This document shows, in pieces, positions 747 to 47,307 of a stretch of 64,000 bases of DNA. The stretch is taken from contig NC_092344.1 of NCBI RefSeq assembly GCF_963676685.1, forward strand, positions 32,674,001-32,738,000. Reading direction: 5' to 3'. Under the pieces are notes generated by a model, which ran no database searches, had not been told where the DNA came from, and saw only the letters and a list, made by a program, of their open reading frames with translations. Numbering within the stretch: position 1 is the first letter of the stretch; each line of letters starts with the position of its first letter. Source of the DNA: Mytilus edulis (taxonomy: Eukaryota). A program made the position numbers and the translations under genes.

Positions 747-3700
747 ATGAAGAGGAATAGCAAATTCCGACATGGCATTCTCAAACCATGTGAACGAAAA
801 GTAAGTATTGAGGACTATGCTACATTCAACAATTAGCTAAATATTGTCCCCCTTTTTCTTTTCTTTTCTTCAGAGTTGAAGCTTTTCTTTAATATTTCAT
901 TCCAACATATTGCACATGTGTTAACTGTTGCTCTTTTTCCGAGGCTGTTAACATACTTGTAAATCTTCACAATAACTATAGTGCTAGTATTGGTAGCCTA
1001 CCCATTTATCATGTTGATCGAATTTTATTTTTTAAAAATTGCTAGATTGGCTAGGACTATAGACATGATAGATGCAGCATAGGCGGATCCAGGGGGGACC
1101 CTAGGGCCTGGGCCCCCTTTTTGTGGGAAAATTTTTGTAGATTATATAGGGAATCACTGAAGCTTGACTGGAGCGCCCTTCCCCCCTTAGGTCAGTCAGC
1201 AGGCCCGCCCCTTATGAAAAGTTCTGGATCCGCCACTGTGCAGCAGTTACAAAACACATACAAAAACAGTAAAAATAATTAATAGAAAATGGATGTTCAT
1301 GTCTATATACAAGATCATTTTAAAAGGAATTGATAAAGGCAAATAAAGCTTTTTATACGCCCGTCAAAATTTTAACGGGACGTATTATGGTATACAAATG
1401 TCTGGCGTAAACATGTCGCACTGTAACTTGAGAACGACTCATCCAAATTTCATGAAACTTAATACAGTTGTTCCTTATAATGGTCAAACAATCTGTATAC
1501 TTTTTGGTGAAAATAAGATTAAAACTTTATGAGTTACGGGACTTTGTAAATAAAAAAAGGGTGTGTAATTTTTCACATGTTGCACTGTATCTCAAAAACA
1601 ATTTATGATATTGCTTAAAACTTCACACACTTCTTAGTTATATTCATCTTAAGATCTGTATACTTTTTGGTGATGATTCAAAATTATATTTAAAAAATAT
1701 TAAGTTTTTTGTTAAAAAAAGGTGGGTTTTCACATGTCACGCTGTATCTTTGAAACTATTTATGATTCTTGCACACAAGATGACGGGCGTATCATGGGCT
1801 CATGGTGCAGCTGTTTATTCTTTATGTTTGTTGTTTCAAGACATTCCAGTGCATGTAAAATATAAGTCAAAAGGAGAAACAATGAAGTGAATTAACTATA
1901 TCATGCATATAAAACCTTGCTTAGAGGTACACTGTACTGTGGCTAGAACATTTTCTATCCTAGAAATTCTCACACTGCATGGAAAATGTAAGCTTACAAA
2001 GATCTACAAACATTCTTAAAAATAAAAAACAAAATTACTTTCTTAGCCAAAAAAACCCACATTGTAAGTGGTTCAACAAATACACATTTCTAGTACTGTG
2101 AAAGTACTTTTATTCGTGGGGTACCAATTTTCGTGGTTTTCGTGGATGACTTTATCCACGAATTTAAGTGTCCAACGAAATAAAATAACCATTGTCTAAA
2201 TCAAGACCTGGAAAGATCCCAATCGGTAGGTTTGACTACTGATATGACATGTATGATCTAGTCTAAGAGAAGATATTGAATAGCACCAACTATGAGAATA
2301 CTTTAATAGCAGGCACAGAACTACAACCGCATGCAGGATTATACCCATTTAATCTTTAATAACCTAAAATGTACAACTTTTGTTTTTGATCAATGAAAGT
2401 CAGATCTCCGGTATTGATATGCTAGTATGATAAAGTGTTCATTTTATATCCTCATAGTTCTCGTACATATAAGAAATAAAAAAATTATGCTGGTCTTTAT
2501 TTTGATAAGAATTATTTGACAATTCATAGCATTTGTTTATGTTACTGTTTTCTTTAGGTGACATGTTAATGGCCTAATTAAACTTTTGATGGTCTTTAAT
2601 CTGTTGATCACTTTATCATGGGTTAATTGGTGTTATCACTACAATTTACACGGGTCAATTTTTTTCTGTAGGTCAATTGCACTTTCCTTCAATCTAGACT
2701 ATTTGTAACCCTCGTTTCTAAAGGCTTCAATTTTTCAATTTTATTTTTTTTAGGAAACTAAAATCCACGAATTAAAAAACCCACGAACATGTAAATATTG
2801 CTCAAACCACGAAAATTAATACCCACGAATTAAAGTACTTTCACAGTATACAGTTTTACTCTGTTTTCAGTCAATATTTAGAACTGTAAAAGATTTGATA
2901 ACTCCAAAATGGTTATCCAGACTTTTCACCACTGAAGAACAGCATGAGCCTAAAGAACCACAGGAGGAAGACACAAGAACAAGGGTATTTATTAGTTATG
3001 TTAGACATTAAGAGATATGAAAGAGGTTGATTACAAAATTGATCTTTCAGCATTCTCAAATCGATAAAAACTTTTTTATAAATTATACATTACAAGTCAA
3101 TGCTCGATCCATAGATGTATAAAGCTGTACACAGAAGGTTGATCTAAACAGATTCATTACAAAAGGTCTGTTTAGAAGGGATTGAAAGTTTTCTATCAAT
3201 TTAGTTCAGTCAATCCAAAATTGTTCACACATTATGATCCTTTTAATAAAGAGATTTTCCAGTTTATAGTACAAATCAATTTTTAAGAATATTTATACAT
3301 TTGTTATTTCCAAACTCTTTCTAATACTTGCATATCTGACTTTTCATTTTATTTCTTTTTTCAGTCCATATTTGGATCGTTGAAAGATTTGTTAACACCA
3401 TCATGGTTGACCAGATACATCACTTTGAAACCAGGAAATATAAACACACAGGATTTTAGTAAAGACTGTAAGGTATAAAATACTAAAGCATCAAAATGTT
3501 CCACCTCTCAAAAATTAACACATTACATGGCCTTTTACTATGGTAGATGCTGAAGTTCCCCTTTGTATAATCATATATAAAATCTTTTCATATTCTTGTA
3601 TATATAATGTTGTAACAACTATCCACAATAATCAATTATCTAATTGGGTCAATGAAGGAGGTTGTGGATTTGATCCCCTGTCAGATTTAACCAAAGACTT

Positions 3701-5386
3701 GAAAATCTACATTTGCCTTCTCTTTTAAGCAAACTTTAGCTTTTAGGAATGCAAACAAAGTAGATTTCTCAACTGAGTTTTGTTTACATGAAGTAGCAAA
3801 CATCCAATAAGAAACAATAAACATTATACACAATCATTGCATAATGTTCTTCAGTGAACAGTTCTTCAAGTAAGCTAGTACACTAGGGCATTTTTGGGGC
3901 CTTTTATAACTTGCTGTTCGGTGTGAGCCAAGGCTCTGTATTGAGGACTGTACTTTGACCTGTAATGGTTTACTGTTACAAATTGTGACTTTGATGGAGA
4001 GTAGTCTCATTGGCACTCATATCGCATCTTCTTATATGTTTAATTATTCAAATGATTAGATATAAGAAGATGTGGTGTGAGTGCCAATGAGACAACTCTC
4101 CATCCAAATAACAATTTATAAAAGTAAACCATTAAAGGTCAATGTACGGCCTTCAACACGAAGCCTTGTCTCACACCGAACAACAAGCTATAAAGGGCCC
4201 CAAAATTACTAGTGTAAAACCATTCAAACGGGAAAACCAACAGTCTAATCATTATAAAAAACGAGAAACCAGAAACACGTATAAATTACATAAACAAAGG
4301 ACAACTACTGTACATCAGAAGTCGATTTCACAAAAAAACTGATGACTAAGATTAATCGTAAGTATACTGTTTGGTTTATGACTTAAGACTAATCTTAGTC
4401 GTAAGTTTTTTTTGTGAAACCGACCCCAGATTCCTGACAGGTGCAAACATTTGCAGCGGAATTTAACATTTTAATGGTACCAAACCTTCTTTCTTTTTCT
4501 GAAACAATAGTATAACATCACAACATAGAAAAACACACGATAAAATCAATTACTTTTAAAATGTTTTACAAAGTTGCACTGATCAAATGGTTAAATTTTT
4601 AACTTATTGTTGGTGAAAGGTTGTTTGTATTGAGCAATAAATTGTGGCTCTGGGGCTGCTTATAATTTTATTATATTTACCATAACAAATATATAAGGGA
4701 GATAATCATAATGATAGACACAATTAATATTATCTCCCCTTATTATCATGTTTTAAATTTACTACAAAATTTTGTTTTTAAACTAATGAATTTCTGTTTT
4801 CCTTTATAGAACACATATTAATAGTTTTATAACAATTTAAACAATATTTATAACCAATTACTGTCATTAGGACAGAAGTTCTCATATTTTTTTTCATAGA
4901 ATAATACCTCCAGTTATCTCCCTTACAGTAATTCTTAAGTTTCTCAGACGTAAACCAAAGATTTTCTCAAATTGGGAAGAGGGCTGTGAGGCTGATGAAT
5001 GTTAATATTTATGAAAAAGGATTCAACCCCAAAATATCATTGGTCACTTCTATATTTTCACTTCCTTTCATCCATAACTATATTAATTTTCCCTCTTTTC
5101 CCCAATACAACTTGAAAAGTATCATCTTTTTACAGGTGTATCAAAATGACTATGGTCATAGGCATCCATATTACTCAATTCAAAATATTGCTTTTATATG
5201 TTCAATTGCTGAGGGATATTCAAGGAAAAAATTGAGGAGAAGGGTCAGTCTCAGACAACACCAATACTTCTTTTACAACCAACCAACCATATTTTTTTTT
5301 CTCATGTTAACAGAATTGTTTTTATACGACCGCAAAATTTGAAAAATTTTTCGTCGTATATTGCTATCACGTTGGCGTCGGCGTCG

Positions 5387-5419
<33 letters not shown>

Positions 5420-8400
5420 TCGTCGTCGTCCTGCGTCCGAATACTTTTAGTTTTCGCACTCTAACTTTAGTAAAAGTGAATGGAAATCTATGAAATTTTA
5501 ACACAAGGTTTATGACCACAAAAGGAAGGTTGGTATTGATTTTGGGAGTTTTGGTCCCAACATTTTAGGAATTAGGGGCCAAAAAGGGCCCAAATAAGCA
5601 TTTTCTTGGTTTTCGCACTATAACTTTAGTTTAAGTTAATAGAAATCTATGAAATTTTGACACAAGGTTTATGACCACAAAAGAACGGTTGGGATTGATT
5701 TTGGGAGTTTTGGTTTCAACAGTTTAGGAATTAGGGGCCAAAAAAGGGCCAAAATAAGCATTATTCTTGGTTTTCGCACAATAACTTTAGTTTAAGTAAA
5801 TAGAAATCAATGAAATTTAAACACAATGTTAATGACTACAAAAGGAAGGTTGGTATTGATTTTGGGAGTTTAGGTCCCAACAGTTTAGGAATTAGGGGCC
5901 AAAAAAGGGCCCAAATAAGCATTATTCTTGGTTTTCGCACCATAACGTTAGTATAAGTAAATAGAAATCTATGAAATTTAAACACAAGGTTTATGACCAT
6001 AAAAGGAAGGTTGGTATTGATTTTGGGAGTTTTGGTCCCAACAGAATAAGGGGCCCAAAGGGTCCAAAATTAAACTTTGTTTGATTTCATCAAAATTGAA
6101 TAATTGGGGTTCTTTGATATGCCGAATCTAACTGTCATGACTGTGTATGTAGATTCTTAACCTTTGGTCCCGTTTTCAAATTGGTCTACATTAAGGTCCA
6201 AAGGGTCCAAAATTAAACTTAGTTTGATTTTGACAAAAAATGAATCAGTTAGGTTCTTTGATATGCTGAATCTAAAAATGTACTTAGATTCTTGATTATT
6301 GGCATAGTTTTCAAGTTGGTCCAAATCGAAGTCCAAAATTAAACTTTGTTTGATTTCATCAAAAATTGAATAAATGGGGTTCTTTGATATACCAAATCTA
6401 ACTGTGTATGTAGATTCTTCATTTTTGGTCCTGTTTTCAAATTGGTCTACACTAAAGTCCAAAGGGTCCAAAATTCAACTTAGTCTGATTTTAACAAAAA
6501 TTGAAATCTTGGGGTTCTTTGATATGCTGAATCCAAAAATGTACTTAGATTTTTTATTATGGGCCCAGTTTTCAAGTTGGTCCAAATCCGGATCCAAAAT
6601 TATTATATTAAGTATTGTGCAATAGCAAGTCTTTTCAATTGCACAGTATTGCGCAATGGCAAGAAATATCTAATTGCACAATATTGTGAAATAGCAAATT
6701 TTTTTTTAATTAGAGTTATCTTTCTTTGTCCAGAATAGTAAGCAAGAAATATCTAATTGCAAAATATTGTGCAATAGCAAGATTTTTTTTAATTGGAGTT
6801 ATCTTTCTTTGTCCAGAATCAACTTAAATCTTTGTTATATACAATATACAATGTATATTCACTTTTTACTACCAACTGATAAATTAAAATAATCTTTACC
6901 ATTCAGTGATAACAAGCAGTTTTTTTACATCTTAATATTTTATGATGTATTTAAATGAGTAGTTATTGTTGCAAACTCCATTAGAAATTTTAATTCAGAT
7001 TAGTTTTGAAATAAGGGAAAGGGGAATGTGATTAAAAAAATTGGGTTCAATTTTTCTCATTTGAAATTTCATAAATAAAAAAGAAAATTTCTTCAAACAT
7101 TTTTTTGAGAGGATTAATATTCAACAGCATAGTGAATTGCTCTAAGAGAAAACAAAAATTTTAAGTTCATTAGAACACATTCATTCTGTGTCAGAAACCT
7201 ATGCTGTGTCAACTATTTAATCACAATCCAAATTTAGAGCTGAATCCAGCTTGAATGTTGTGTCCATACTTGCCCCAACTGTTCAGGGTTCAACCTCTGC
7301 GGTCGTATAAAGCTACGCCCTGCGGAGCATCTGGTTATTGTTTTTGCTTTTGCCCTTATTACCTAGTAGTTTTCAGAGATAATAATTTTCAGTGAAATTA
7401 GACATGTAATAATTTTTTCTATACAACCATTTTACAATATATATATTTTGCCCTTATTTTATCCTCCAAAATTTGATGGAATAGACTTCTATAAATAATC
7501 AAAAGTATATAAACTCTATTGTGACAATAATGTTGTTTTTAATTTCATAGAAACAAACATTAAATAGAGACAAACAACATCAGAATGTTGAAAGATCACC
7601 AGTAAATACATGCAACCAGAAAAATAACTCCAGATGCAGTGATACCTGTTTTCCCCAGTCAACATCTATTCCTCACACAGGGCCGAGAGAAGATATTCAT
7701 CATCATCAAGATCAAATTCCTGTTCAGAATACTGGTATATTCTCATCATCTCAGCTTCCATTACAAACAGTAAACATTGATGGCCATTACATAGATAATG
7801 GTAATAACATTATTATATTGGTTATGATGGATTGTGGATTAATGTCCAGTGGCAAATATTACAGGTGTATCAGGATGAGAAAATGTCAATGTAACATGAT
7901 TATGCACCTTGCTTTGTTCTAGAATGACATAATATGTAGCCTTTTTTTTAATCTGATATCTCACAATAGTCCACAGGAAGGCATGTCACCATACTAGGAC
8001 ACATTATATTGACTCAGTCCTGCCATTACTTCTAAATGCTGGGTGCTGTCTTTGGCTTACTTCAGTGGGTATTTAATTTATAAGCTGATTTAAAAGCATA
8101 AAATCAAGGAACTATTAGTATTTGTGATATTCTTGTAACATTACTAGATTTAAAGTAGAAGGTCCCTACGTAATGAAAGGTATATTGAGATCACATTTCA
8201 AATATTTTATAAAAAAAATAAAGTAGACCAACATATATGATTAAACTTATAGTCAAGACTCTTTATAGGAAGAAATAGAGAAAAAAACCAGTTTCATAGT
8301 TAAAAATATGTCTGAAATCCTTAATGATCAAAAATTTTGCGTGATGTCGAAAAACATTAAATGTCATGATTATCTAAATGAAATTCTTTAGAACAGAAAA

Positions 8401-11400
8401 TTTAACAGGTTTATAAAGGGAATCAATTGGTTTATATATAGAAGTACACCTGAACTTCAATTTTGTGATGTAGAAAAAGCTCATACAAGAAAGTTATTTG
8501 TATTGAAATTGACGACACCAGCCATTCTTTATCTTACATTGAGGTTTTCCCTTATTTGTTGTCAAATATGTATTGAAAACTATTATGTACGGCAAATGTC
8601 CATGCACATCAATCAAGTTGACTTTCAGTATCATATCTGTAGTAAATCTAAACCCTATCATTTTGTTTGATGATGAATATACACACAAAAATCTTACCTT
8701 AATTCAGTGGTTGTTGTTTGTTTTTGTGTTACATATTTGTTTTTCGTTAATTTTTTATACAAATAAGGCCGTTAGTTTTCTCGTTTGAAATGTTTTACAT
8801 TATCATGTCGGGGCCTTTTATAGCTGACTATGCGGTATGGGCTTTGCTCATTGTTGAAGGCTGTACGGTGACCTATAGTTGTTAATGTCTGTGTCATTTT
8901 GGTCTCTTGTGGACAGTTGTCTCATTGGCAATCATACCACATCTTCTTTTTTATATTGTCAAATTTCTTACCTTTAATACTACTGAAAATTTAGAAATTT
9001 TTGCTATGTTTTTATTATTGTGAAAAATGTGGTAGTGTTATAATTGCACTAATTTAAACTTGCATCTTGAATTTTTTTAGATGTATTATACAGGATTTTT
9101 CGCAATATAGCAAAAATTAAAATTGCATTTTAGCATTTTAGCCTAAAATAACAAATTTGCAATAATAAATGCATGCAATAATTTTTGAATTTACAGTATA
9201 TAAGACGATATAAAGAAAGCCCAGTCAGGCCTATTGCTTATGAGGATTTATTTTTATTTTAGATGACAACTTTTCTAACATTAGTGATTATTCTGGGTGT
9301 TCAAGTGGATATTCCTCAATGAAACCACATCAGCCAACCAGCATTGAAGAGAAAAAATTACTTACAGAACTGAATAACAATGGTTGGCATAACTCAGGTA
9401 GCAAAAATACTTCACAAATACTACCATGTACATGATATGCATGTGCTAATTTTATCTAATGATATTTTTTTAGAAAGTATATACCGGTACATGTTTATGG
9501 TCAGTGGTAGGGTGTGTTTATCAAATATGGACTGACCATTTTAAGTTTGTCCTTTGCTCTGGTTGCTTTAGATCAACTTCATTGCAGGATTAACTTCTTA
9601 GACCTTCCATAAAATTTGTGATTGCAGATCTAGTATGTGCACATTTAACAATTAATCTGGATGAGGTTGAGGCCTTTGTATAGTTGTTATGATATTCACA
9701 TATACTATTGCCAATTTCTTAGTGACCAATATCTTCATTTCAGTTTTTTGTTTCAGAGCTATCTGACACATCATGAAAGATACTATATATCAAAACATGT
9801 ATTTAAAACATATATTTTACTTTTAAATGTATCCATTTTTTGTTAGAGTAAAACTTTGTTTACTTCTAGATTCTCCAAAAATTATGAATTGGTCAGCACA
9901 GTACAATACTAAAATGCCAAAGAAGTCATCATTGACAGAAAAGTCCAGCTCAGGACTGAACTTATTTCCAAGTAGAGCAGATGTAAGTCCATTTTATTTT
10001 TGTTGAACCTGCAATATTTTGTTTAGGAAGTGATCATGGAGATTAATATGACATTTAGTTTCAGTATGTGGTTAAAGTTTTTTTTTAACATCAATAACTT
10101 ATTTAAGTCATTATGGAATTTTATGAAACAGAAGCTTTTTATGATCAATAGAGAAAAATCCAGAGCGTAATTTAAGTTTTTTTCTTTATTCTTCCATATT
10201 TTTCTGATAAATGGACTTACAACTTTTTTGGCAGATAACATTTAAATACAGAATGAGATAAATTTTTATTAGACATAAATGAATATTTTGTATTCTATTA
10301 TTTGAAGTAATGAGCATTATTTTCAGGAGAGTGCAACAATACTGTCTAATAGATTAATTGAAAGAAATTTTCATCCTGGTACAACATTTGGAAGAGGTTC
10401 ACCACAGAAAAGAAAATGGAATGAAAATTGTAGTCCCAGTTCTCCACATAAGGTAGAGTAGATTTCTCTTGCTATTGTAGTTAGTTTTTGTTTTTAAGTA
10501 ACAAAAAACTTGTAATTAAGAAAACGCTTTCGTGATTTATCATTCTCTATATTAAGCAACAAAAAAACGGCATTGATGTGCTAGCCAAATATATCATTAT
10601 TAAAAATAGAAGGAAAAGTTATAGATAAACAAGAAATTAAAGTGAAATGTGGGTTTGCATCAATTACAATTAAAATATTTTCCATTCTTCATAGATTCCA
10701 ACAAGACAGAAAATGCAAGCCAGACATGTAACCAGCTCAATAAACAGTAATTTACTCATTAGCTTGGGAGCCAAAAATATGGAGGGAACATTGGAAAAAC
10801 TGAAAACAGAAATCGAAGTAAGTGTATTTTTGTTTAATTAATTCTATAGCAATTTAACCCTTTCTGAATCAAATGTATAAAAAAAATCATCAACGTGTTG
10901 TAGCCGATGATCTCTGAACATGATTGGATGAGTTTTCAGGTCATAACCGTTATAAGCTCACTGAATAAATCAAAATGATCAATTAGATGTTAATGAAATT
11001 GACAACCTTGTGGAATGTGGAAGGCACTCAATGGGATATTTGTTTATTTATTCATTAGAGAAACAGATTCTTACATAGTTACTAGTGGATTATTAGATTT
11101 ATCCAATCTCAATAATTTTATCAATTTTATTAAATTTCTCCCAAGACTGGGAATTTTTCGATAATTTAACTATTTTGATTGGATAAATCTTATAATCCAC
11201 TGGTACCAATGTAAGAAAGTTTCAGAATCTATATTTACATTGTACCATACATTATTTCAAAGAGCCTTCAATGAAATAAATGTAACAGGATGAAAATTCA
11301 TTTAAAAAGGACAAAACAAAACCCCAGTTTAGTATATAATTGAAAGATGATTTGGTGTACATCACAATTAGACAGCAACCCATGAATACAAAAAGAACAA

Positions 11401-14400
11401 CAAACATTTATTCCTGACTTATAAAATCATTTATTTTACTTTTAAGGAGTTCCACCTAACATCTACAGACAATGATATATCATTATATGATATGTCTAAA
11501 AAAGATAAATGTCACAGTGTAGGGAAAGAGAGTCATTACAGTAATATTGACAAGTTATCATTTGTGTCATCAAGTACTGATAAAGAATTAGAAGAACAAG
11601 GTAACTAATATATTCATTATGATTAAAAATAAAAGGAGATTATTATACTTTAGTAAATACATGTACTACTGTTAAGTCTTATGAATTATAAACTATAAGC
11701 AATTCAAACTAGATACTGTGGATTCATTTATATTTGTTGGAAACCAATTTTCATGGGTACAGGGGAACCACAAATTTAAATGTTCATGGAATTACAAATT
11801 TTCCAATGGAATGTATGCAGACTTTGCCAAAACTATGAAATTAAATATCCACAAACATGCAAATTTTCCTCACATTATGAAAATAAATGAATCCACGGTA
11901 GATTTAAAATATTGTAGCTTGACAACATTACCAATTGCTACTGTTTCTTCTCCACCATGCTAAAACTTTAAGATCCGCCTTTTAGATCACATGACCCTAA
12001 AAGTATGTTTTTAGTTATTACAGTTAATATTTTATCATATGCATGACCTCAAAGACTAATTTTGACAATTTTTTGTGTTTTGCAAAAACTATAAATATAG
12101 ATAGAGATAAATTGTAAACAGCATTATTTCTCTCAAAATAATATCTAATTTTAACTTAACTAAAATTGTCAATTGCCTTTGAAAGATGTGTTTCTCTCAA
12201 TTTTGTCCAGAAAGATAATTTTTCTTTTGTGCAGTCTTTCACAAACTAAAATAGATGATTACCAGATAAAAACCCAAAAGATCGCAGTGAGCTTTTCTCT
12301 TTACTCATCGTCTTGTCAGCAGCAATCACAGGTGAGAGACAGGGTTCCATGGATATTTTAACTTTTGCATTAAGTCCTGACATGTTATGTTTTATTCTGT
12401 TTGTTATATTTTGTTATGTTTTGGTTGGGTTTTTTTAATGTTTTTTTTTTGTGTTTTGTTACGTATTGTAATACATCAATGATATGTCATTATTCTTCTG
12501 CTTTATTTCTAGATGATTGCCAGATAGGATCGGCTGGTTTAAGTTCTAAATCTGATATGACATCACATCTAAATGGTTATTCAAAATCAAGCAGTGAATT
12601 CTATTTGACAGGCAATAGCAATAGTTCAGCCAAGTTTGGAGGAAAGTCAGTCTTATACAATAATGGATTTATAGTGAAAAAAAGATTAACAGAACTATCT
12701 GAAAGAATAGATCAACCCCAGTCTTGTAAATATACTTATAGCAAAGATTTGCCAAAACAAAATGGTTCATCATTTAGCAAATACTATGAATTGCAACCTT
12801 TAGAGACAGAAATAACATCTGAAATCAATGAAAGTACAATTTCCAAGGAATATGTTGTCAAGGACAAATCAGAAGTCATGGTCAAAAGTTCAGACAACAA
12901 ATCTAGGGAAAGCTCATCTGGAGATACCATAACATGTGATACACTTAGTTCTTCTTCAAGATTGTCAAGGACACCATTATTGGGAACATCCGAGACAGCA
13001 GCACTTGCATCTCAAATATCAGAAACATCAACACAAAACAGGTTAATATCTCCAATGGCAGCAGCAATACCTAGAACATCAACACCTTCATTAAGCACAT
13101 CTTGGATATCAACATCTGCATCTCAGACCATATTTGGCAAATCACTTGCTTCAACATCTTTCTGTACAAAATCAGAGACATCAGAAGTTTTAATTGGAAA
13201 TTCGAATAAATCAACACCATCAGTTGGACTTCCTCAGTCAACATTGCCAATAAATTCCACATCTTGGGTTTCAACACCAACATTTAGAGCTCCTCAACCA
13301 CCAATACCAACATTAGGAACACCTCTGACATCAGCATCAACAGTTGCCACATCTCTGGTATCAAAAGTTACATTTGGAAATCCTCAGACATCAACATTTG
13401 CCAATTCAATGGTATCAAAACCAGCAATTAAAACAGATAAGACCTCAGCAACACCAACTAGCATATCAATGCTTTCTATACCAGCATTTGGAACACATCT
13501 GACATCAGCACAAAGAAGTAGCACATCACTGATATCACCACCAGTATTTGGACCATATCCAATATCAGCACCAACAACTAGCACATCACTGCTATCAACA
13601 CCAGCATTTGGAACACATCTGACATCAGCACAAAGAAGTATCACATCACTGCCATCAACACCAGCATTTGGAACACAGGTGACATCAGCACCAACTACTA
13701 GCACATCACTGCTATCAACTACAGCATTTGGAACACATCGAATGTCAGCAACAAAAACAAGCACTTCTGTGGCTTTAACATTTGGAACAATAGAAGCGTC
13801 AGGATCAATTGGGACATCATCCAACACTCATGGAACACATCAGACATCAGAGACAGACAGAATGACATTAGGAAATGTTCAGACATCATCATCAGTAATA
13901 TGTAAAACATCTTCAACACCCATACAAACATTTGGAACATTCCAAAAATCATTAGCTCCATTTAGGCAGCCTCAGGTTACAACAATGAAGCCTGAAATGT
14001 CTAATGCACCACCAATGTTTACAATGATGCAAAAACAAACATCAAACGTTGGGGCCTCCAATAATGGTGATATAGCAACTGCTGAAATCTCAAAACTAAG
14101 AACAACTGAGGCAATTAATTTGAATTCTAGGGAATGTCCTATAACCTCTTCAGCTTTTGGAATATCTCACTCATCTCCGATAATGCCACCAGAGAAAGAA
14201 AGATCATTACAAGCTATCGACACTTGTACAGCACAGAAATCAAGGTCAAAATCTGGAACATCAGAGGCTTCAATAAAAGCATATGCTACATCTCAGTCAT
14301 CACCATATGAAACAATGCACAACTCAGTTTCAGCATCTGGAACACCTTTGATACCAACCACAGTATTTGAAAGATCTTGGGAATCATCATCATTTGAATC

Positions 14401-17400
14401 TTCTTCAAAATCAGAACCAACAGAAACATCCAAGTCATCAGCAAAGTTACAAACTATTAAATCATTACCAACAACATTTGACATTTCCCAGACACCAAGA
14501 TCAAAAATCCAAAAATCAACACAGAAACTAGGAAAACCTGAAAGACGTTTATCACATGTCTTGGGTATGTACTTCTGATACATTTTTATTCATAAGTTAC
14601 AATTTTTTGTGGACTTCGTTGGTTTAGACGAAGTAGAAATTTAAATTTAAATTTTTATGAAAGAAAAGACATTTTTTTTTCAACTCAACATTATACATAT
14701 TATGTTATTTTTATATAGAAAATAAGCATTATGTTTGCTTCTGAAATATTAGTGCATAGGAACAAAAAATAAGATATTATACAGAGAGATCCTTAAGAGA
14801 AATTGTTAAAAAAAACCATTTAATTAACCTTCTTTGTTTTTTGTTTTTTGTTTTTTGTTCTTTGTTAGTCTGTTTCTTAATTTTTTCATTTCGATTGTTT
14901 CACATTATGTCATGCTAGGGACATTTACAGCGTACTCCATAGTACGGGATTTGCTCATTGTTAAAAACTATATGTGACCAATATTTGTTCATATCCTTGT
15001 CCTATGGTTTTTAATTTATGGCATACATTACACAACTTTTATATTCACTTGAATGTGTATTTAAGCCTCAAATGTTTATTTCATGAAGATGTCTATATAC
15101 CTTTTTTACATTTTTTTTCCCACTGATTTAATTTTATTTTATAAAAAAAAGCTTTTATAAAAGATTGAAATTAAAATTCTATAATACTGCTTGATTTTAT
15201 AGAACAGTGTCTTTAATAAAGTCTTCCAAACAATCTGCTCTTTGGTCGGGTTGTTGTTTCTTTGACATAATCCCCATTTCCATTCTCTTTAAAGTTTGGA
15301 GACTTTCATGGTTATCCTAAGGGCTTACCTATCTATTTTGAAATGAAAATATCGATTTAGTATTCCAAAAAGCTAGAACACATTGTTGCATGTGTTATTG
15401 TTATGGGTATACATGTACTATAATTATAGATTATAGTTGATCGTCTCAACAAGATTGATTTTCTCGCTTGAGCCGGGACGGTGAACGTGAGAAAGGCAAT
15501 CGAGTTGAGATGACCAATGATAATCTGTTTATCGCTATTTTACCTATGGCCACCTTGTTAATTTCATGTCAATTTCGCTAGCAACGCCACGTGCCTGCTT
15601 AGTTTCTAGCGATAATTTTCCATCTCAAGTGAGTAGCATATGAAAAATTATCACAAAAAAAAGATCTAAGGAAAAATGCACAAAATAGCAATAATTTATA
15701 AATATTTTTAATTTGATTTTCAGGAGATGACAATTGTGATGCTGGTATTAAAAGAGAAGGTTCATATCATGTGCCTTCTACCATAAACGTTGAGACTTTT
15801 ATTCCTGAATATAGAAAATCACTTGTTTCTAGACCAATAGATTTGAATGCTGATGACTGTAATGTTTCTGTAGTAACATTTGATTTAGAAACTACAGGTT
15901 TTGGTAAGCTTAATTAATCATAGGTGGACCCAGCAGTGCCCCTCCCCCTTTTGTGGAAAAAAAATCGGATGATTATTTCAGGATTATCTAAAGCATGACT
16001 ACTGGAGCCCCAACCCCCCCTTTATGAAAAGTTCTGTATCCACCAATGGTAATTATTAGATTCTGCAGACTTTTTGGTCATTGATGGACTAGGAAGGTGA
16101 TCTACATTTACCTGAGAGGATATCAATTAATATTTATTTACAGCAGAGTGTTAAATTAGTATCAGGGAACAACCATTTGATGTTATAGTGGGTGCAAGAG
16201 GATTTTTCATGGATAGAATGCTCATTTCCATTTCATTTTGGTTTTATATGCAATTATTTCCTGCATTTTTTTCAGGCCAGAATATGTATTTCAAAAAACC
16301 CTTCTGCACACCCTCTCAGTCAATAGGTTGTCCCCAAAAACAGATCTACATTAGATGTTACAGATGGTATAGATAAATTTAAACTTAAAGACCATCAAAA
16401 TTCCACCAACACCTTGATAGTTGTCATGGTGATTTATTTTGCTAAAATACCACCAAACTCTAATATACATGTATAGTGGATGTGATTTACTTCACCAAAA
16501 TACCACCAACACTTTGATATATAGTGGATGTGATTTACTTCGCCATTATACCACCAACACTTTGATATTATAGTGGATGTGATTTACTTTGCCAAAAAAT
16601 ACAATGTTTATAATATGTGTTCATTCTTTTTGTGAAGAATAATGAACTTACCAGTACATATAAATTGATAAGTTAGCTACGGTACTAAAAATGGTGTTTA
16701 TCTCTTCATTAATATTTTGATAGGATGCAACAAACACAACCTGTATCAAAAAAAAATAATATGGAAGGGTTTGAAAGTTATATTTTAGTTAATTTGATTG
16801 GTTACAATGGATTAAACATTTTTATTAAAAGATATGTCATTTCTTTATAAAATTTAGCTATCTTTGAAATATTTCTTTTTTTAGGTAATAATGCAGATAT
16901 TGTTCAAATATGTGCTGAAGTTGTTGAGATAACATCACAAATTGTAGACAAGGAGTTCCAAATATTCAAGGAATATATATTACCAACCAAACCAATGGAT
17001 CCAAAAGCTTCTGAAGTTACAGGCTTATATAGTGATGGCCGCTTTCTATATTATAAAGGACAGAAACTTAACACTTTGTCAAAATTTGTGGGTCTAGAAA
17101 AATTCATAAAATGGCTTCCACATAAAGCAGTCCTAGTTGCTCATAACTGTAAAATTTTTGACTCTAAAATTATTGTTGCACAACTGAGCTCAGTGAATCT
17201 CGTGAATGAATTTCATCGCAAAGTTTCTGGTTTTTCAGATTCACTTCACATATTTAAACAAAAATATCCTGGTAGGAAGTCTTATAAACAAGAAAATCTT
17301 GTAAAAGATATTTTAAAAAGAAGTTATAATGCTCACAATGCAGTGGATGATGTACAACTCTTGAACATATTGATGAAAAACTCGCAAGTCAGTCTTCAAG

Positions 17401-17711
17401 ATATCATAAATCACAGTTTTACTGTAGAGTATGTTCAGAGTTATCTTACAGAATTTAGATGTAAAGAAACACGACTTAAAACATTCAAACCTGTTTATAT
17501 GTCTGATGAACCAGTAATGTCAAAGTCTTTATGCGAGAGAGCAGCAAAGAGTGGACTGAAATTAAGACACTTGCATTTAGCTATATCTCGTGATGATTTT
17601 GATGGTCTTCGTAAACTTTTTAGTGAAATAGATGATGATGGGAATGTGAGAGTAACTAAAATGAATAGAATCATCAAAAATGTGTACAATTTTTTAACTG
17701 AAATGAAATAA
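747..17711 (+). CDS. NUP153-N-terminus-like / FG-repeat / DEDDh exonuclease (PML-C-like) fusion protein, about 1411 aa, 12 coding exons
   Basis: Phase-compatible GT-AG exons: 747-800 (exon probably starts at 681), 2871-2984, 3365-3472, 7551-7800, 9263-9397 (alternative donor 9382), 9870-9982, 10327-10452, 10695-10817, 11447-11600, 12513-14564, 15724-15903, 16885-17711. Sum is 4236 nt and open throughout. The N-terminal motifs are colinear with NUP153, and ExoI/II/III motifs lie at the C-terminus. The true start could lie upstream of 681. Confidence 0.8.
1078..1238. mobile_element. Short MITE with GGCGGATCCAG inverted ends (degenerate relatives at about 15918-16050 and 43460-43590)
   Basis: aggcggatccag ... 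ctggatccgccact; the interior gaatcactga-gcatgactggagc-cccttatgaaaa is shared among the three copies. Confidence 0.6.
1350..1819. mobile_element. Helentron-associated non-autonomous element (HINE/DINE-like)
   Basis: Subterminal inverted repeat ATACGCCCGTCA (1355) / TGACGGGCGTAT (1781), T-rich ends, internal degenerate tandem repeats and a short 3' palindrome. Confidence 0.65.
2094..2848. mobile_element. MITE with long TIRs, TACTGTG...CACAGTA ends (Tc1/mariner-like)
   Basis: tactgtgaaagtacttt-attcgtggg at the left end mirrors cccacgaattaaagtactttcacagta at the right end. Confidence 0.8.
2871..2984 (+). CDS. Exon encoding NUP153-like amphipathic helix, copy 1 (SIFRTVKDLITPKWLSRLF...)
   Basis: Acceptor ttttcag at 2864-2870 and donor gtattt at 2985; 114 nt, phase 0-0, no stop. 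Confidence 0.7.
3365..3472 (+). CDS. Exon encoding NUP153-like amphipathic helix, copy 2 (SIFGSLKDLLTPSWLTRYI...)
   Basis: Polypyrimidine tract plus cag ending at 3364; AAG|gtataa donor; 108 nt, phase 0-0. Confidence 0.75.
3879..4550. mobile_element. Two inverted copies of a high-copy retroelement-end repeat, with a small hairpin MITE inserted at about 4321-4428
   Basis: 3879-4037 is the reverse complement of 4059-4216. Related fragments occur at about 8700-8955, 23825-24030, 30370-30505, 40770-41050, 41650-41780 and 44545-44730. Confidence 0.65.
5319..7335. mobile_element. Helentron-associated element (HINE) with (GTC)n microsatellite and internal tandem arrays
   Basis: Perfect 14-bp subTIR TTTATACGACCGCA (5321) / TGCGGTCGTATAAA (7298); (GTC)n at about 5377-5430; four units of about 160 bp at 5451-6060; further 130-145-bp repeats; 3' hairpin gctacgccctgcggagc. 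Confidence 0.8.
8981..9198. mobile_element. TACTG...CAGTA MITE (second copy at 20984-21211)
   Basis: Imperfect TIR tactgaaaatttagaaatt / aatttttgaatttacagta; homologous interior at 20984-21211. Confidence 0.65.
11714..11900. mobile_element. TACTGTGGATTCATT MITE (second copy at 55049-55260)
   Basis: TIR tactgtggattcattta / taaatgaatccacggta; related to the 2094-2848 family. Confidence 0.65.
12513..14564 (+). CDS. Large Ser/Thr/Pro-rich exon with degenerate FG repeats (nucleoporin-like low-complexity region)
   Basis: Core of ORF 12401-14578; acceptor tttctag at 12512 and donor G|gtatgt at 14565; about 11 FG dipeptides (PAFGT, TFG, VFG). Confidence 0.85.
13440..13770 (+). repeat. Coding 60-nt (20-aa) tandem repeat, STPAFGTHLTSAQRSSTSLI type
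   Basis: ccagcatttggaacac recurs with a 60-nt period; degenerate copies extend back to about 12960. Confidence 0.85.
15420..15695. mobile_element. Foldback element with a long internal hairpin (Crypton-like non-autonomous, by inference)
   Basis: agattatagttgatcgtctcaac...gttgagatgaccaatgataatct arms around a GC-rich loop; same architecture at about 11060-11220, 32787-32938 and 47668-47811. Confidence 0.5.
15724..17711 (+). CDS. DEDDh (DnaQ-like) 3'-5' exonuclease domain plus PML C-terminal-like helical extension; exons 15724-15903 and 16885-17711
   Basis: ExoI VTFDLETTGF|GNNADIVQI is split by a phase-1 intron; ExoII LVAHNCKIFDSKI; ExoIII AHNAVDDVQLL; C-terminal ...AKSGLKLRHL...DGLRKLFSE...VRVTK extension. 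Confidence 0.9.
16400..16600. repeat. About 45-bp intronic minisatellite
   Basis: taccaccaacactttgatatatagtggatgtgatttactt repeated about 4 times. Confidence 0.7.
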
Positions 17712-19639
17712 ATAGATATATTTATATCGTTAGCTTCACTTTTCAATGGAAAAGAGACATGGTGTGTAAATTCATGACAAAAACAACTACACACACACAC
17801 ACTTTACAAAACAAACGAAAAGAAAACAGTGTTTTTTTTGCTGTTCTTCATCTCGAGATCACAGAGAGGCCTTCTTCATACAACAAACCATCATCCTCAT
17901 TGAAATTGAAAACTGATCCAAGCACTAGTTGGAAGAAATTTCTTTGCCAGATGTAGATTGCACTAGTTTGTGTGCATTGATCTCATTTTGCTTTTTCTTT
18001 GTCCATAATCATAAAACATCGAGTTACATAAATCCTTACATTTGTCTGAACTGTAAACACCTTTAACCTATCAAGTCAAGTGTGGTAAAATTGGTTGAGT
18101 GGTTACAGATAGATAGTTTTGTCCCCCACGTAATGAGTTGCATGGGACATAAAAATACCAGGCATTCCAGTCTTGTATTATTTTTTTAAGTTAACGGCAA
18201 TAAAGATGAACACCATGTGAAGGCAATAGCCCACATGGCCTATAGAAATATGTAAACTGACAATCTTACAAAATCCTTCATCAAACCATCTGAATTCTTT
18301 TATGGGTTATAACCCCAGAACTGTAAATTGATTTGATACCACTGGAAATTTAACTTGACCTGCATTTTATGGCTGATTGCAATGCTACAATGTAGAATAT
18401 TCTAGCTCTTAGCAAACGTATGTAATACTGAAACAATTCTACCATTTTGAGATAAACAGTGCATGCAAACCTCTAGAATGGTAAATTGTTTCAATAGTGA
18501 AGATCAAATTTCTCCTGCATTCCATAAAAAATATGTATTGGAGGGTATTGTACGATTTTAATTAAAAATAAACTTTCAAATAATTGTCAGACAACAATTT
18601 AAAATCAGATGAAAACAGCCAAAGTGGCAATCTATAATTCCCTAGACATTGCTCTCAATCCTTGTACTGAATTCCACTGAAATTTTGCTCACCTTCATAT
18701 TCTTATCGTCAGACTATACGGACAGTATACCAAAATGCAATTGTTTACCAAGTCATTAAGTGTGTTATACGAACATGGACACAGATGCTACTAGTACTAT
18801 AACAGTGGTCTTCACAATTAACTTATTTGTTAGGTCTGGTGATCTCTGGTCATAAATAAAACATATATTTTACAGTATTTTATTGTTTTCCCACAGATAA
18901 AATGTGAACAATGGAATTAAAAACACTATAGAATAACATCCAACATCACATTTTTATAAACAATGAAAATGTTTAATACATTTGTGTGAAGCACTGAGCA
19001 ATACTAGTCTTGTTAGTAGCATATACTTACAGATTAACTACTTTTAACCTGAAAGTAAATTTCATGACTTAAATATGCAGGTACACTACAAATTCTGCAA
19101 CTAAATAAAAACTAAGGTTAACAAAAATTTTGTTTAACTACATAGCTAACTAATTGTGCAATTCTCAAGAATCTCTACTGGTTGCTGAAAAAATATGAAT
19201 GGAGAACATATATTTTGAGGCATATCTGGCCTTGCCAATCAACAAAAATTCTGTGCTGGGTTATTTACTTTGATGCCATTTGTCTGATTTTTACCACAAA
19301 TAGGAAGATTTTAGGAACATAGGTGCAGATATGTGTTACCGTAAATATTTTATCAAATATACACAAATTAAAATTAACTTTTGTCAATGAAATTTTCAAC
19401 TACGGTAAATGTTCTTTAAACTTTTTAGAAAATTTAATCTCAAAACGTTATTTCTTCTCATTACATGTTTTTACACAACACATAGAGCTTTATCTTCGAC
19501 ATATGTATATGTTCAATATAAACAGAAATAAAATTTAAATGGACCTAAAAATACATCATAAAGTTGTGTTAAATTAGTTGAATTCAACTTGATACTGGTA
19601 ACAAAAATCTAGAAAAATTTCCTGTATGTATTTCGAATA

Positions 19640-26400: not shown

Positions 26401-29400
26401 CACTTAGTCAGACTGACATTGGTCACTAATTCAGACATGTATTGACCACCAATTCAGACTGACATTGGTCACTAATTCAGACGTGTATTGACCACTAATT
26501 CAGACTGACATTGGTCACTAATTCAGACATGTTTTGACCACTTATTCAGACATGTATTGACATCTAATTCAGACTGACATTGGTCACTAATTCAGACATG
26601 TATTGACCACAACTTCAGACTGACATTTGTCACTAATTCAGACATGTATTGACCACTTATTCAGACTAACATTTATCACTAATTCAGACATGTATTGACC
26701 ACTAATTCAGACTAACATTGGTCACTAATTCAGACATGTATTGACCACTAATTCAGACTGACATTTGTCACTAATTCAGACATGTATTGACCACTAATTC
26801 AGACTAACATTGGTCACTAATTCAAACATGTATTTACCACTAATTCAGACTGACATTTGTCACTAATTCAGACATGTATTGACCACTAATTCAGACTAAC
26901 ATTGGTCACTTAATCAGACTAACATGTACCTCTGATTTATCATACACATCATCCTCATCAGATTCTGCTGTGTGAGGAAAGTCTGTAAATGTATGAGTCT
27001 GTACTTTTCCTTTATCTTGAGGAAAATCTAAAATAAATAGCCAGAAAATTATATAAACTTGATATGGGATTATAAGAGGATATACTATTTATAAGTATTA
27101 TGAAATAAACTGGATTCGTTGGTCAACAATCAGATTGAGAGTGGAATCGCCTAAACTTAGGTTATATGTGACATGTATGTTAAAACTATCAGTCTCTGCT
27201 GTTGTCTGAAAATATAAATTTCCACTTATATAATTGATAATAATGATCATGATACAAAATTTAAGATTTTATCTAGTCCAGTCTGAAAATAAGCAATTGT
27301 AACAAGTCATTTGAATAAAATGATTTGATACTTTGGCCTATATTATACACAATCATTTAACATTTTTTTCTTTAAGTTTACATGTACAGCTGTTATACTT
27401 ATTTATATCTTAAAATCTGAAATTTTAGTATACATTTATCTTTGCTATTGATAACAATGTATAAAAATGTTAAACTAATTAAAGCAATTTCAAACATTGA
27501 TGCTTACAATTATGCTATCAGCAAGTTTTACATTTTTGCAAAACCTATCCCAATGCAATTTTCACTTTAATAAGCACATTGCATAAATTTCTGTCATTAT
27601 TTTATTTACATTTACATTTTATGTCACGTTTGTCTTTGGGTAACAATATGATTTTTAAAAATCCTAAACTGTATGTACTTAACAGTTAGACCATTGTATG
27701 AATTTGGAATCATTTCATAGTGTCTGTCCATTTTCTTTGATTGGTGAACTTTGAGAATAACATACATTTCTGTTTATTCCGGTTATTCATAAATATTATT
27801 GGTTATTTTTTACATTGATAATAAAATTGAGAATGGAAATGGGGAATGTGTCAAAGAGACAACAACCCGACCAAAATAAAAAAACACAACAGCAGAAGGT
27901 CACCAACAGGTCTTCAATGTAGCGAGAAATTCCCGCACCCGGAGGCGTCCTTCAGCTGGCCCCTAAACAAATATATACTAGTTCAGTGATAATGAACGCC
28001 ATACTAATTTCCAAATTGTACACAAGAAACTAAAATTTAAATAATACAAGACTAACAAAGGCCAGAGGCTCCTGACTTGGGACAGGCGCAAAAAATGCGG
28101 CGGGGTTAAACATGTTTGTGAGATCTCAACCCTCCCCCTATACCTCTAACCAGTGTAGAAAAGTAAAAGCATAACAATACGCACATTAAAATTCAGTTCA
28201 AGAGAAGTCCGAGTCTGATGTCAGAAGATGTAACCAAAGAAAATAAACAAAATGACAATAATACATAAATAACAACAGACTACTAGCAGTTAACTGACAT
28301 GCCAGCTCCAGACTTCAATTAAACTGACTGAAAGATTATGATTTCATCATATGAACATCAGGCACAATCCTTCCCGTAAGGGGTTAAGTATCATACCATC
28401 ATAACATATATGAGAAGAACATAACCCGTGTCATGCCAACAACTGTTTTTAGAATAAATGTGTTTAGTTCCGACGCAAAGACCTTATCAGTGACTCAATA
28501 TTAACGCCAAAATATGCAATCTTTAATGACTTGACAACAGTATCGTAATTATATCCCTTCTTAATAAGTCTATTCAAAGGTTTTGTAAGTTTATGAGGTG
28601 AATACTGACACCTTTGTGCTTTATAAAGAATATTTCCATAAAAAATTGGATGTGAAATACCTGAACGTATAAAAAGTCTGCATGTTGAGCTATATTTACG
28701 AATGATGTCTTTATACCGATGATAAAATTTAGTAAATGTTTTGACTAGTTTGTGATATCGAAAACCCTGGTGTAATAATTTTTCAGTAATACATAAATTT
28801 CTCTCGTTAAAATCTAAAACATTGTTACATACACGCAGTGATATTGTTTGCCTCAAATAACAGCCGAAATTCGGCCTTTTCCCCTAGAGAAAATTCCCAA
28901 TTACTAAAAAAAATGGCTTAAAATTCCTCCCAAAAAGGTCTACATTTTCCCCAAACAGTGATGGCATTGGTAGTAATGTTTGTAAATATCGTATTCATGT
29001 TATTATTTTGATATTATAAAGCACTTTTGAGATCCAGTTTTCTGATCAGAATCATCATGGTGTTTGTAACACATGTGGTTTTCAATGCATTAAGTACCAT
29101 CATTGCTTCAGTTTCTTTCCCCTCTCCGAAAAGTACCTTCCAGGTTGAAAATGTCTGACAACCAAAATATACATGAAAAAACAGTGCAAAAAAGACAGCA
29201 AAGGTCAGCAAAAAATCGGAGATGTGTTTAGAATAATATTTCCCAATTTCAATAAAAAATATGCATTTTTCCCAATAAAAAACGGTAGAGGTAGTTTTGA
29301 AAAAAGACAACAATATCACTGACACGAGCGAATCGTACAAGTTGAGATATATAAACACCGTAAGATGGTGACAATGGAACGTCACCATCTAAAAACGGAT

Positions 29401-35100: not shown

Positions 35101-36502
35101 TATCTTACGCCACAATGGAGGAAAAGTGATTGTTGTATGTTGTCAAAAGTTCAAGCGGCCAGTCAGCCGGGAATACACTGAATAGCGATAAACGGTATCA
35201 TGACAATGTTAAAATAGGAATTAAATTTTTTTTAACAACAATAATAATTTATTTTGAAATACAAAAATCATTTGGATAAAAAAGTTTTGTCAATATGAAC
35301 ATGATGAATATAAAAATTTAGACTCAAGATAAAAGTTAAAAGTACCAACTTTCATTGGAAAATCCTTAGATATGAGAAAAAGGTCTTGCAGTGACAAACA
35401 GAAATAACATATAGTATGACAGGGGACATTATTATCAAGGATAAAGGTCAAGGTATACATGACACAGTGGCCTTATTTCCAACATCAAAATTTCAAGTTA
35501 TCATAAGCCTATGTCATATGAGAAAAAAAATGTTTCTGGACTCATAAATGTAATTACCAGAACAAACCAAGCATTTTTACTGAAGTCAATGGTCATTGTC
35601 ACATAAAGGTCATGATGATATGCCACATACCATCTTAAGGTTGGCACTTATACAAATTCTTGTCAAATATCATAAGCCAGTGTCAAAACATAAAAAGTAA
35701 TTGCCAACACAGAATTTTAGGAGAAGCAAAACCTGAAGAAGAAAAACTACTGATCATGATATCATTCATCATAATGTTTGTGATAAGATTATTGTTGAAG
35801 CTCCTTTATTTCAAATAAAGGCTTGGCAAACATACCATAAAAATCCAATTAAAATGATATGCATGTACTTAACCATATCCATACAATAAAATGCTGACTT
35901 ATGTCCAACTTTATTTTTTGTTAAGATTGAAAAATTATATTTGAACATTGTATCAATTCTTTACTTATTTATTTACAGGAAATTATTTGTTCAACATATT
36001 CAAAGACTACAGAGCAGTATTTGATGAGACAATACAAGATATAAAAAATCGTCCAGTGAAGGCTTCATTTTATGGATCTTTGTTAGCTACAAGCATTGTC
36101 ATGCTGAAAACTAATCCGTCAGAACAAAATTTTCAATCAGAAATTTTAGAGTGTTCAAATTCCTTATCCACTGTTGGTGAGTTAATACGTAACCCACAAT
36201 CAGACAATCATGTGACCACATTGATGACTGCTATGAAAGATAATACGATGAAAGTTCGAAATTTGAAATTTTTTACTGTAGTATCCATGAGAGAATATCC
36301 AATTCATTCTGGTTTGTTTGAAGCCAATTGTACCTATGCCAAACCACACTGGACAGAATGGCACAAGTCAATAGTTGATATTGGTATATTTGGTAGATGG
36401 GTATATCTGAATAAAGCTATGAAAGACTATGATGTAAACCCAGACGAATGGCTACCTGATGGACAACCCAAAATTAAAACTAAGATGCTTCCTTATGATT
36501 GA
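32125..36502 (+). CDS. TIMM29: Mitochondrial import inner membrane translocase subunit Tim29, about 207 aa, 2 coding exons
   Basis: Exon 32125-32224 encodes a basic, Ser/Arg-rich presequence-like MTSVSRLKSSSRLIGK..., phase 1. Exon 35979-36502 contains DY...RPVKA, IRNPQS, IVDIGIFGRWVYL and MKDYDVNPDEW, typical of Tim29. Confidence 0.88.
32263..34202. mobile_element. Foldback-type DNA element with subterminal AAATCGGCAC repeats, hosting nested insertions
   Basis: Repeated agtcaaatcggcac at the left end and gtgccgatttgact at the right end. Confidence 0.75.
32339..33257. mobile_element. Nested foldback element with GGACAAAAAGTCACA subterminal repeats and an 8-bp TSD
   Basis: ATCGGCAC is duplicated at 32331-32338 and 33258-33265; inverted arrays of ggacaaaaagtcaca / tgtgactttttgtcc. 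Confidence 0.8.
34385..34612. mobile_element. GC-rich MITE
   Basis: gggtctcattgggg / ccccaatgagaccc ends, flanked by taata. Confidence 0.6.

Positions 36503-47274: not shown

Positions 47275-47307
<33 letters not shown>

Follow-up and report, generated by a model that had tools for sequence, protein, structure and literature searches.

Results

A twelve-exon gene with a Nup153-like start and an exonuclease end

The window analysed here is a stretch of 64,000 nucleotides (nt) from Mytilus edulis (contig NC_092344.1, positions 32,674,001 to 32,738,000 of the forward strand). Between its positions 747 and 17711, on the plus strand, twelve exons combine into a single frame of 4236 nt that ends in one terminal stop and encodes a protein of 1411 amino acids (aa), in which exons resembling those of the nucleoporin Nup153 precede a DEDDh exonuclease. 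An earlier note on this DNA had proposed such a gene of twelve phase-compatible exons, a structure that we can confirm: all 11 introns are of the GT-AG type, and the peptides that the note quotes from this gene are found in the window. In the following list, C1 to C25 denote the exons of the canonical Nup153 gene, and paired z scores refer to protein and DNA comparison, respectively.

Exon 1, 747..800, plus strand: aa 1-18; Nup153 C1 homologue, phase 0-0; protein z 8.4, DNA z 7.4
Exon 2, 2871..2984, plus strand: aa 19-56; first copy of Nup153 C2, with a predicted amphipathic helix; z 11.0/12.9
Exon 3, 3365..3472, plus strand: aa 57-92; second copy of C2, with a second predicted amphipathic helix; 108 nt, the same as C2; z 12.6/11.3
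Exon 4, 7551..7800, plus strand: C3 homologue, phase 0-1; z 10.9/9.0; RNA depth
Exon 5, 9263..9397, plus strand: C4 homologue, phase 1-1; z 17.7/29.2; RNA joint to exon 6
Exon 6, 9870..9982, plus strand: C5 homologue, both 113 nt, phase 1-0; z 15.6/18.5; RNA joints
Exon 7, 10327..10452, plus strand: C6 homologue with the basic patch QKRKW; z 9.5/10.8
Exon 8, 10695..10817, plus strand: C7 homologue with the helix at aa 326-343; z 10.6/20.0
Exon 9, 11447..11600, plus strand: probable diverged C12 homologue, phase 0-1
Exon 10, 12513..14564, plus strand: aa 393-1077, serine/threonine (S/T)-rich, expanded from C22; contains a 60-bp sequence repeated six times (13406-13764)
Exon 11, 15724..15903, plus strand: linker and ExoI motif (D1130 at 15882, E1132 at 15888); stops at the phase-1 intron that transposon copies have as well
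Exon 12, 16885..17711, plus strand: remainder of the DEDDh exonuclease (D1229 at 17160, H1287 at 17334, D1292 at 17349), PML_C (SAM-like) domain and stop codon

This chimeric gene is real and not a chance product, as it is represented by models from several species and by RNA joints. Eight of 1631 candidate longer proteins matched. Seven of them, 1004-1488 aa long, come from five species of Mytilus and show 82-100% identity across exon 12; the eighth has 586 aa and 34% identity. Full or near-full-length models exist for M. edulis, M. galloprovincialis, M. trossulus, M. californianus and M. coruscus, and the whole architecture, from MKR on, is found in five of the seven proteins; the initial exons are missing from P0005, and P0001 begins within exon 10. 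The database models for the window haplotype name the gene uncharacterised: P0180 (394 aa) comprises chimera aa 1-392 and two residues from intron 9, and P0001 (1004 aa) equals aa 408-1411 letter for letter. The earlier note had argued that the nuclease needs the upstream exons. Exon 11 indeed has no Met ahead of the ExoI motif, but exon 10 does, which, together with the P0001 model, means that the nuclease is not strictly dependent on exons 1-9. An extra exon at 12211-12331 was dropped, as it broke the frame and matched no Nup153 exon.

Transcription and splicing

At least half of the exon 10 words are present in 20 of the 24 listed runs, three of these 20 being recorded as RNA. Four runs were mapped onto positions 7400-18300, with X1 being RNA, X2 RNA by guess, and X22 and X23 raw. 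GT-AG joints 5-6, 6-7, 7-8, 8-9, 10-11 and 11-12 are seen in contigs of both X1 and X2, including 14564/15724, the junction on which the earlier note had staked its single-gene model, and 15903/16885; one X2 contig of 1422 nt aligns to 14120-14563 and to 16884-17680, and the 180 letters that separate these two parts match exon 11 in size. In each of the four runs, depth is zero in three intron bins, within 8128-8491 and 16136-16863, indicating that the signal is not genomic DNA, and first mates of X22 over exon 10 lie solely on the minus strand, as expected of plus-strand RNA in most stranded libraries. Six X22 reads cross joint 8-9 and three cross joint 11-12. For joint 9-10, X2 record 8 begins at 12511 with 66 letters that differ from intron 9, an offset that is expected after an exon ending in AG and would support this joint; the length of X1 record 1 would also leave room for it. 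Overall, there is a good likelihood that the full-length fusion protein is made.

In the same mapping, T>G at 9915 is carried by 70 minus-strand reads of X23 and 100 of X22, with 0-6 reads at adjacent positions. The substitution yields the canonical Nup153 codon; these reads are thus probably canonical Nup153 transcripts, which would make the chimera far less expressed and sample-specific.

The upstream exons come from a partial Nup153 duplicate

The earlier note had considered the N-terminal part a duplicated, fast-evolving NUP153 copy and had asked for a separate canonical gene with zinc fingers. Such a gene lies on the same contig, 16.2 Mb away (G000:C1:16451402-16502477), intact and with 25 exons, 1496 aa and four zinc fingers. 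The N-terminal region of the chimera matches Nup153 with a pairwise E value of 3e-35, and when aa 1-400 of P0006 were compared to 3421 candidates, the sole non-orthologue matches were four Nup153 proteins (E 5e-33 to 2e-28, 32-34% identity), which carry PF08604 and PF00641. At the level of single exons, window exons 1-8 find their respective best matches in C1, C2, C2, C3, C4, C5, C6 and C7, with identical phases and z scores of 8-18 for protein and 7-29 for DNA; the amphipathic-helix exon C2 is thereby doubled in the chimera (exons 2 and 3). Exon 9 probably descends from C12, its global DNA alignment (z 3.1) being the best among 14 exons tested and its score being reached by 0 of 300 codon shuffles; the protein-level comparison is not significant (66/500 shuffles). 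Three segments of exon 10 match C22, each scoring above 200/200 codon shuffles (z 5.2, 10.3 and 6.4), a test that none of C11, C13, C18 and C24 passed. C18 had been tried as the source of the start of exon 10 and failed, with 136/200 codon shuffles equalling its score.

No counterpart was detected in the chimera for C8-C11, C13-C21 (with the four zinc fingers and FxFG) and C23-C25. What had been called an FG-repeat exon cannot keep this name: exon 10 is S/T-rich and degenerate, and the whole chimera has 14 phenylalanine-glycine (FG) motifs and no FxFG, compared to 33 and 10 in canonical Nup153. As for RanBP2-type zinc fingers, the 1411 aa contain no CxxC and no PF00641 match, and a Pfam scan of exons 4, 10 and 11 matched nothing.

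A 26-row tree nests four chimeric N-termini with Mytilus Nup153 and P0010 (99/97) and keeps them separate from Pecten; the stem of the chimeras is 1.32 changes per column long, and two of their rows fail the composition test. For the timing of the duplication relative to the split from P0010, the approximately unbiased test gave p-AU 0.055. A profile of the Nup153 N-terminus had 158 matches among 1.84 billion representatives, and among the best 150 of these, 115 contain a RanBP2-type finger and a single one, the Mytilus chimera P0005, has an exonuclease. The fusion has so far been found in Mytilus only, in a collection with thin coverage of other mytilid genomes and many fragmentary matches. 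Ten of the twelve exons are thus of Nup153 origin, and the upstream part of the chimera is a partial Nup153 duplicate that retains C1-C7, probably C12, and an expanded C22.

Membrane-binding and targeting motifs

In PMC8700311, the N-terminal amphipathic helix of Nup153 is described as binding the inner nuclear membrane, transportin as shielding this helix from cytosolic membranes, and Nup153 as recruiting the Y-complex. The helices of exons 2 and 3 have hydrophobic moments of 0.76 and 0.70, the 99th percentile of the protein being 0.66; the canonical Nup153 helix has a moment of 0.66. Each of the two helices is 18/20 identical in M. californianus, compared to 78% for the surrounding region. 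The N-terminal basic motif, which we take to be a PY-type nuclear localisation signal, reads KPYERRK in the canonical protein and KPCERK in the window chimera. A basic patch, K-R-K/R-W (aa 286-289, exon 7), is conserved among the chimeras and absent from canonical Nup153. The helix at aa 326-343 in exon 8 (hydrophobic moment 0.55) is a likely, diverged counterpart of the Tpr-binding helix. In human Nup153, residues 305-320 are a predicted Tpr-binding helix (PMC11392808).

The exonuclease module and its probable transposon origin

Exon 12 has Pfam matches to RNase_T (E 1e-10), PML_C (4e-14) and Exu_RNase_H_like, and no TRIM domain was found in the chimera by Pfam. D1130, E1132, D1229, H1287 and D1292 are invariant in all seven sequences from five Mytilus species. 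A fold model of 315 aa, based on 13 sequences (predicted local distance difference test, pLDDT, 89.9), combines a DnaQ-like fold with PML_C and ranks Plex9.1 as the best structural match (9mrd, 9mrc; template-modelling score, TM, 0.90; root-mean-square deviation, rmsd, 1.9), then Exuperantia, then TREX2/TREX1, with TREX1 at 20-22% identity and an rmsd of 4-5. Sequence searches matched four chains named exodeoxyribonuclease III, including 9mrd and 9mrc (E 1e-24 to 5e-17); a chain of TREX1 scored E 2.7e-4. According to PMC10123124, zebrafish Plex9.1 degrades single- and double-stranded DNA, is located in the endoplasmic reticulum (ER)/cytoplasm and micronuclei, and aids micronucleus clearance, while human PXL, with the same EXO and SAM layout, is described in PMC13659232 as a pseudo-nuclease that binds G-rich RNA. 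No stand-alone relatives of exon 12 (150-480 aa) were found at E<=1e-10 among 453 candidates by a short-word search, which is insensitive, such proteins being in clusters. The module is quite likely an active 3'-5' exonuclease.

Across the genome, 142 matches to exon 12 were counted, a figure that does not represent copy numbers. At three of these loci (L009, L005 and L017), one frame contains PF20700 (Mutator-like transposase, E 1e-51 to 1e-55), RNase_T and PML_C, and at L006, PF20700 lies in a frame adjacent to the module; a transposase match adjoins the exonuclease at all eight extended loci. In five of the eight, a GT donor, read from DNA alone, is present at the phase-1 site after F-D-L-E-T-T-G-x, as in window intron 11, the other three being intronless. 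The window nuclease is 31-41% identical to the transposase-linked genome copies; the best-scoring one (locus C6, 41%) has the same FDLETTGF-G as the window. By eye, the transposases of L009, L005 and L017 show KYD, MDDD, D-x-x-H and E motifs and two Cys/His clusters. PML_C sits at the C-termini of these transposases (L009:205-2283, L005:1489-3489 and L017:259-2283; E 2e-11 to 3e-19).

A pair of copies located on different contigs shares 99% identity over 13 kb; at their ends, TTAA adjoins GG on one side and CC adjoins TTAA on the other. Both element ends are present in two of the eight loci (C12b and C7) and one is present in locus C10; they were not found at the remaining extended loci, including the closest, C6. 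Kolobok transposons have TTAA target duplications and RR...YY ends, and KolobokD, which is present in molluscs, codes for a DEDDh nuclease, as stated in PMC9587614. The donor elements fit KolobokD, an assignment based on this published description; in the searched text of the four supplements of that paper, 'KolobokD' had 0 matches. Such KolobokD-type transposons are abundant in the genome. At G000:C8:72626000-72642000, Kolobok-type copies adjoin in head-to-tail order without an intervening TTAA, in units of ~14.4 kb that are 98% identical to the C10 copy.

The six chimeric nucleases group together in an unrooted 18-row tree (100/100), in a single clade that lies among the transposon copies. 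No transposase remnant was detected in the window by tblastn with four transposase queries, and window positions 1-25000 contain no TTAAGG-type ends. Because exon 10 and the penultimate exon of the transposon are both phase 1, simple splice capture would explain the join. These comparisons indicate that the nuclease of the chimera is the C-terminal exonuclease and PML_C module of a KolobokD-type transposase and not a captured cellular PML or TREX1; of the intact PML/TREX1-like exonuclease envisaged in the earlier note, the intact catalytic site has stood and the source has not. With respect to origin and architecture, we regard a host-transposon fusion as highly probable.

Selection and allelic divergence

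For dN/dS estimates, we compared the window to contig C984, treated as its alternate haplotype, with codons near indels excluded. C984 was rejected as a second paralogue; its shared introns and 94-96% identical flanks point to, without proving, an alternate haplotype. Exons 1-8 (340 codons) gave a dN/dS of 0.34 (Fisher p 0.003-0.007), and exonuclease with PML_C (271 codons) one of 0.47 (Fisher p 0.015-0.026), values that speak for purifying selection. The N-terminal region is 78% identical to that of M. californianus, whereas canonical Nup153 is 93% identical, corresponding to a roughly threefold faster divergence. The chimera is fast-evolving yet under purifying selection.

The window allele is itself unusually divergent at 15724-17120: over aa 1137-1215 it is 81% identical to P0006, likewise from M. 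edulis, while P0006 is 87% identical to M. californianus, and the non-coding flanks differ from C984 by ~19-20%, compared to 2.6% in the upstream introns. An old balanced polymorphism is one conceivable cause, introgression another. A 168-bp (56-aa) in-frame duplication at 14040-14207 is present in X1, X2 and X22 RNA and in P0002, P0006 and P0007, and is absent from the window allele; the number of 20-aa repeats in the chimera differs between species. Intron 3 contains a 2-kb repeat element (5323-7334) with internal 161-bp and 126-135-bp arrays, which is missing from intron 3 of C984, where an 84-89% similar copy is found in intron 9 (at window 12447-12449), suggesting two independent insertions in one gene.

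Other features of the window

A Tim29 exon is located at 35945-36502 (Pfam E 4e-50). In P0009 (M. galloprovincialis), chimera exon 10 is spliced to this exon in phase 1. We rejected this as the true gene end, because P0009 is a single predicted isoform and the joint to the exonuclease is seen in RNA contigs; the P0009 joint is then an artefact or a rare read-through. The frames at 28464-29650, 48286-49256 and 43224-47993 resemble Penelope-like and LINE (long interspersed nuclear element) reverse transcriptase fragments and exons of a Brix-domain (RPF1-like) gene.

Discussion

Our results are best explained by a scenario in which a Mytilus host-transposon fusion gene encodes an envelope-anchored exonuclease. 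A Nup153 duplicate has doubled its amphipathic-helix exon and lost its zinc-finger, FxFG and C-terminal exons, and a phase-1 splice links the truncated copy to the final two exons of a transposon of the KolobokD type, the transposase core being gone. In the resulting protein, the paired helices and the N-terminal motifs that were kept would attach to the nuclear envelope, with the inner face or the pore basket as the most likely site; the S/T-rich stretch of ~700 aa would serve as a flexible leash, and the 3'-5' exonuclease would degrade stray DNA ends near the envelope, such as transposon intermediates, complementary DNA, and viral or leaked DNA, comparable to the action of Plex9.1 and TREX1 from the ER. 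Since the PY, the zinc fingers and most FG motifs are lost, a place in the pore basket is not to be assumed, and the simplest reading would be that of an envelope anchor, a leash and a nuclease, with no transport role. Taken as a whole, this explanation is in our estimate evenly balanced between being right and wrong, and the same even balance applies to its element that the nuclease is tethered on the nuclear side.

Several observations weigh against this scenario. None of the seven chimeric proteins matched Pfam PF08604 (Nup153) at E<=1, while the canonical proteins do so at E 1e-22 to 1e-32; the profile of the Nup153 N-terminus does recover P0005. An ESM Atlas search, with scores of 0.77-0.78 and none above, gave no evidence. 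In each of the six chimeras that cover the N-terminal motif, its PY is altered, the sequence being KPC or KSC. dN/dS is 0.66 for the exonuclease core alone and 0.9-1.2 for exons 9-10. The grouping of the chimeric nuclease with the intron-bearing L004 (and L007) reaches just 81/86, and a search for the element ends of L004 did not find them. On the side of transcription, X23 is nearly without signal, and the depth of X22 is 0.4-1.7 over exons 11-12 compared to 12-28 in exon 10, possibly due to divergent alleles. RNA mapping began at 7400, so exons 1-3 lie outside its range, unitig contigs are no proof of a single molecule, and, of the upstream junctions put forward in the earlier note, 7800/9263 (4-5) and 11600/12513 (9-10) are absent among the joints listed, those from 5-6 to 8-9 having been seen. 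Finally, the database models identical to the window haplotype, P0180 and P0001, split the gene at intron 9.

This split is exactly what would be expected if there were two main products, a 394-aa Nup153 N-terminal protein ending in intron 9 and a 1004-aa nuclease from exons 10-12, with the 1411-aa form being minor. AATAAA/ATTAAA hexamers at 11622 and 11628, although common in AT-rich DNA, and the missing 9-10 joint would agree with this. However, exons 9 and 10 are joined in the five-species models, including another M. edulis model, canonical splice sites flank intron 9 on both sides, and the start of X2 record 8 and the length of X1 record 1 would fit the 9-10 joint, which makes two separate products improbable; even then, with exon 10 derived from Nup153, the short form would still be a chimera. 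A transcribed, functionless duplicate that reads through into a transposon remnant might explain the several one-base indels in the C984 frame, the dN/dS near 1 in exons 9-10, and the accelerated divergence relative to canonical Nup153. Yet a frame of 3.7-4.5 kb is open in five species, significant purifying selection acts on both folded or motif-bearing ends, and most of the C984 indels are in short base runs, like sequencing errors, so that we consider this very improbable indeed.

The remaining two alternatives accept a functional fusion and concern its place and substrate. With the PY lost from every chimera in which it can be assessed, transportin would no longer shield the doubled helix, which could then bind cytosolic membranes, since it is transportin binding that normally holds the Nup153 helix off them (PMC8700311); the protein would thus act at cytoplasm-facing membranes (ER, outer nuclear membrane or micronuclei), resembling TREX1 by convergence and in accordance with the ER/cytoplasm and micronuclear location of zebrafish Plex9.1 (PMC10123124). 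The conserved basic patch at aa 286-289, however, could act as an import signal, and C3-C7 are retained under purifying selection, beyond the needs of a bare membrane anchor, rendering a cytoplasmic placement unlikely. Alternatively, the module could act on RNA or bind nucleic acid at the basket, in RNA surveillance or in a germline genetic conflict. The EXO and SAM-like layout is common to Exuperantia and to human PXL, which prefers G-rich RNA (PMC13659232), and fast evolution, deeply split alleles and strong expression differences between runs fit a germline or conflict gene; Exuperantia and PXL, however, are without the catalytic residues, all five of which are invariant in the chimera, and the closest structure, Plex9.1, cuts both single- and double-stranded DNA. 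A role on RNA therefore seems rather improbable.

If the fusion protein does reside at the envelope, it would represent a nucleoporin-derived protein that carries an enzyme of its own and would reveal, as a natural test, which of the Nup153 motifs are sufficient for targeting. That PML_C and a Plex9-like fold occur on Kolobok transposases also makes the origin of PML exon 9 amenable to testing, in that this vertebrate exon, like Plex9, may descend from a KolobokD module. Combining both ideas, a mussel nuclease anchored at the pore or envelope would guard against mobile and viral DNA, and a KolobokD domain would have been domesticated independently onto jawed-vertebrate PML; if true, one transposon domain would have been attached twice to a nuclear scaffold for genome defence, which we put forward as a tentative and rather doubtful proposal. 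PMC9587614 does not contain 'PML', and PMC10123124 and PMC13659232 have no word beginning with 'transposon'. In the literature, from which most subscription papers were outside our coverage, we found neither a nucleoporin-nuclease fusion nor a description of this gene, in agreement with the earlier statement that no described protein of such architecture was known. Capture of transposon domains by duplicated host genes is a known process; the combination of Nup153 with a KolobokD exonuclease appears to be new.

Like Nup153, the chimera has the order and phases of C1-C7, an amphipathic helix, an ancestry of its FG-repeat region in C22 and ~40% N-terminal identity, but it differs by its doubled helix exon, changed PY and terminal nuclease. 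With KolobokD it shares the DEDDh exonuclease, an intron and the PML_C tail, whereas transposase core and element ends are missing, and it occupies one locus, with a likely alternate haplotype, that is orthologous across Mytilus. The DEDDh and SAM-like layout is that of Plex9.1, fish PML and human PXL and, as in PML, is appended to a nuclear scaffold; unlike in PML, this scaffold is a nucleoporin without RBCC/TRIM, and unlike in amniote PML, the catalytic residues are kept. TREX1 has the same DEDDh fold, and we use its membrane-tethered nuclease as a working analogy, although TREX1 is anchored by a C-terminal membrane segment and the chimera, as predicted, by N-terminal amphipathic helices. 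The closest precedent for the process is P2X7, which arose by fusion of a P2X4-like gene with the Kolobok KolX domain (PMC9587614): in both cases, a duplicate host gene gained a C-terminal Kolobok accessory domain, but in the chimera, host gene, Kolobok lineage and domain are different, and the active site of an enzyme has been kept.

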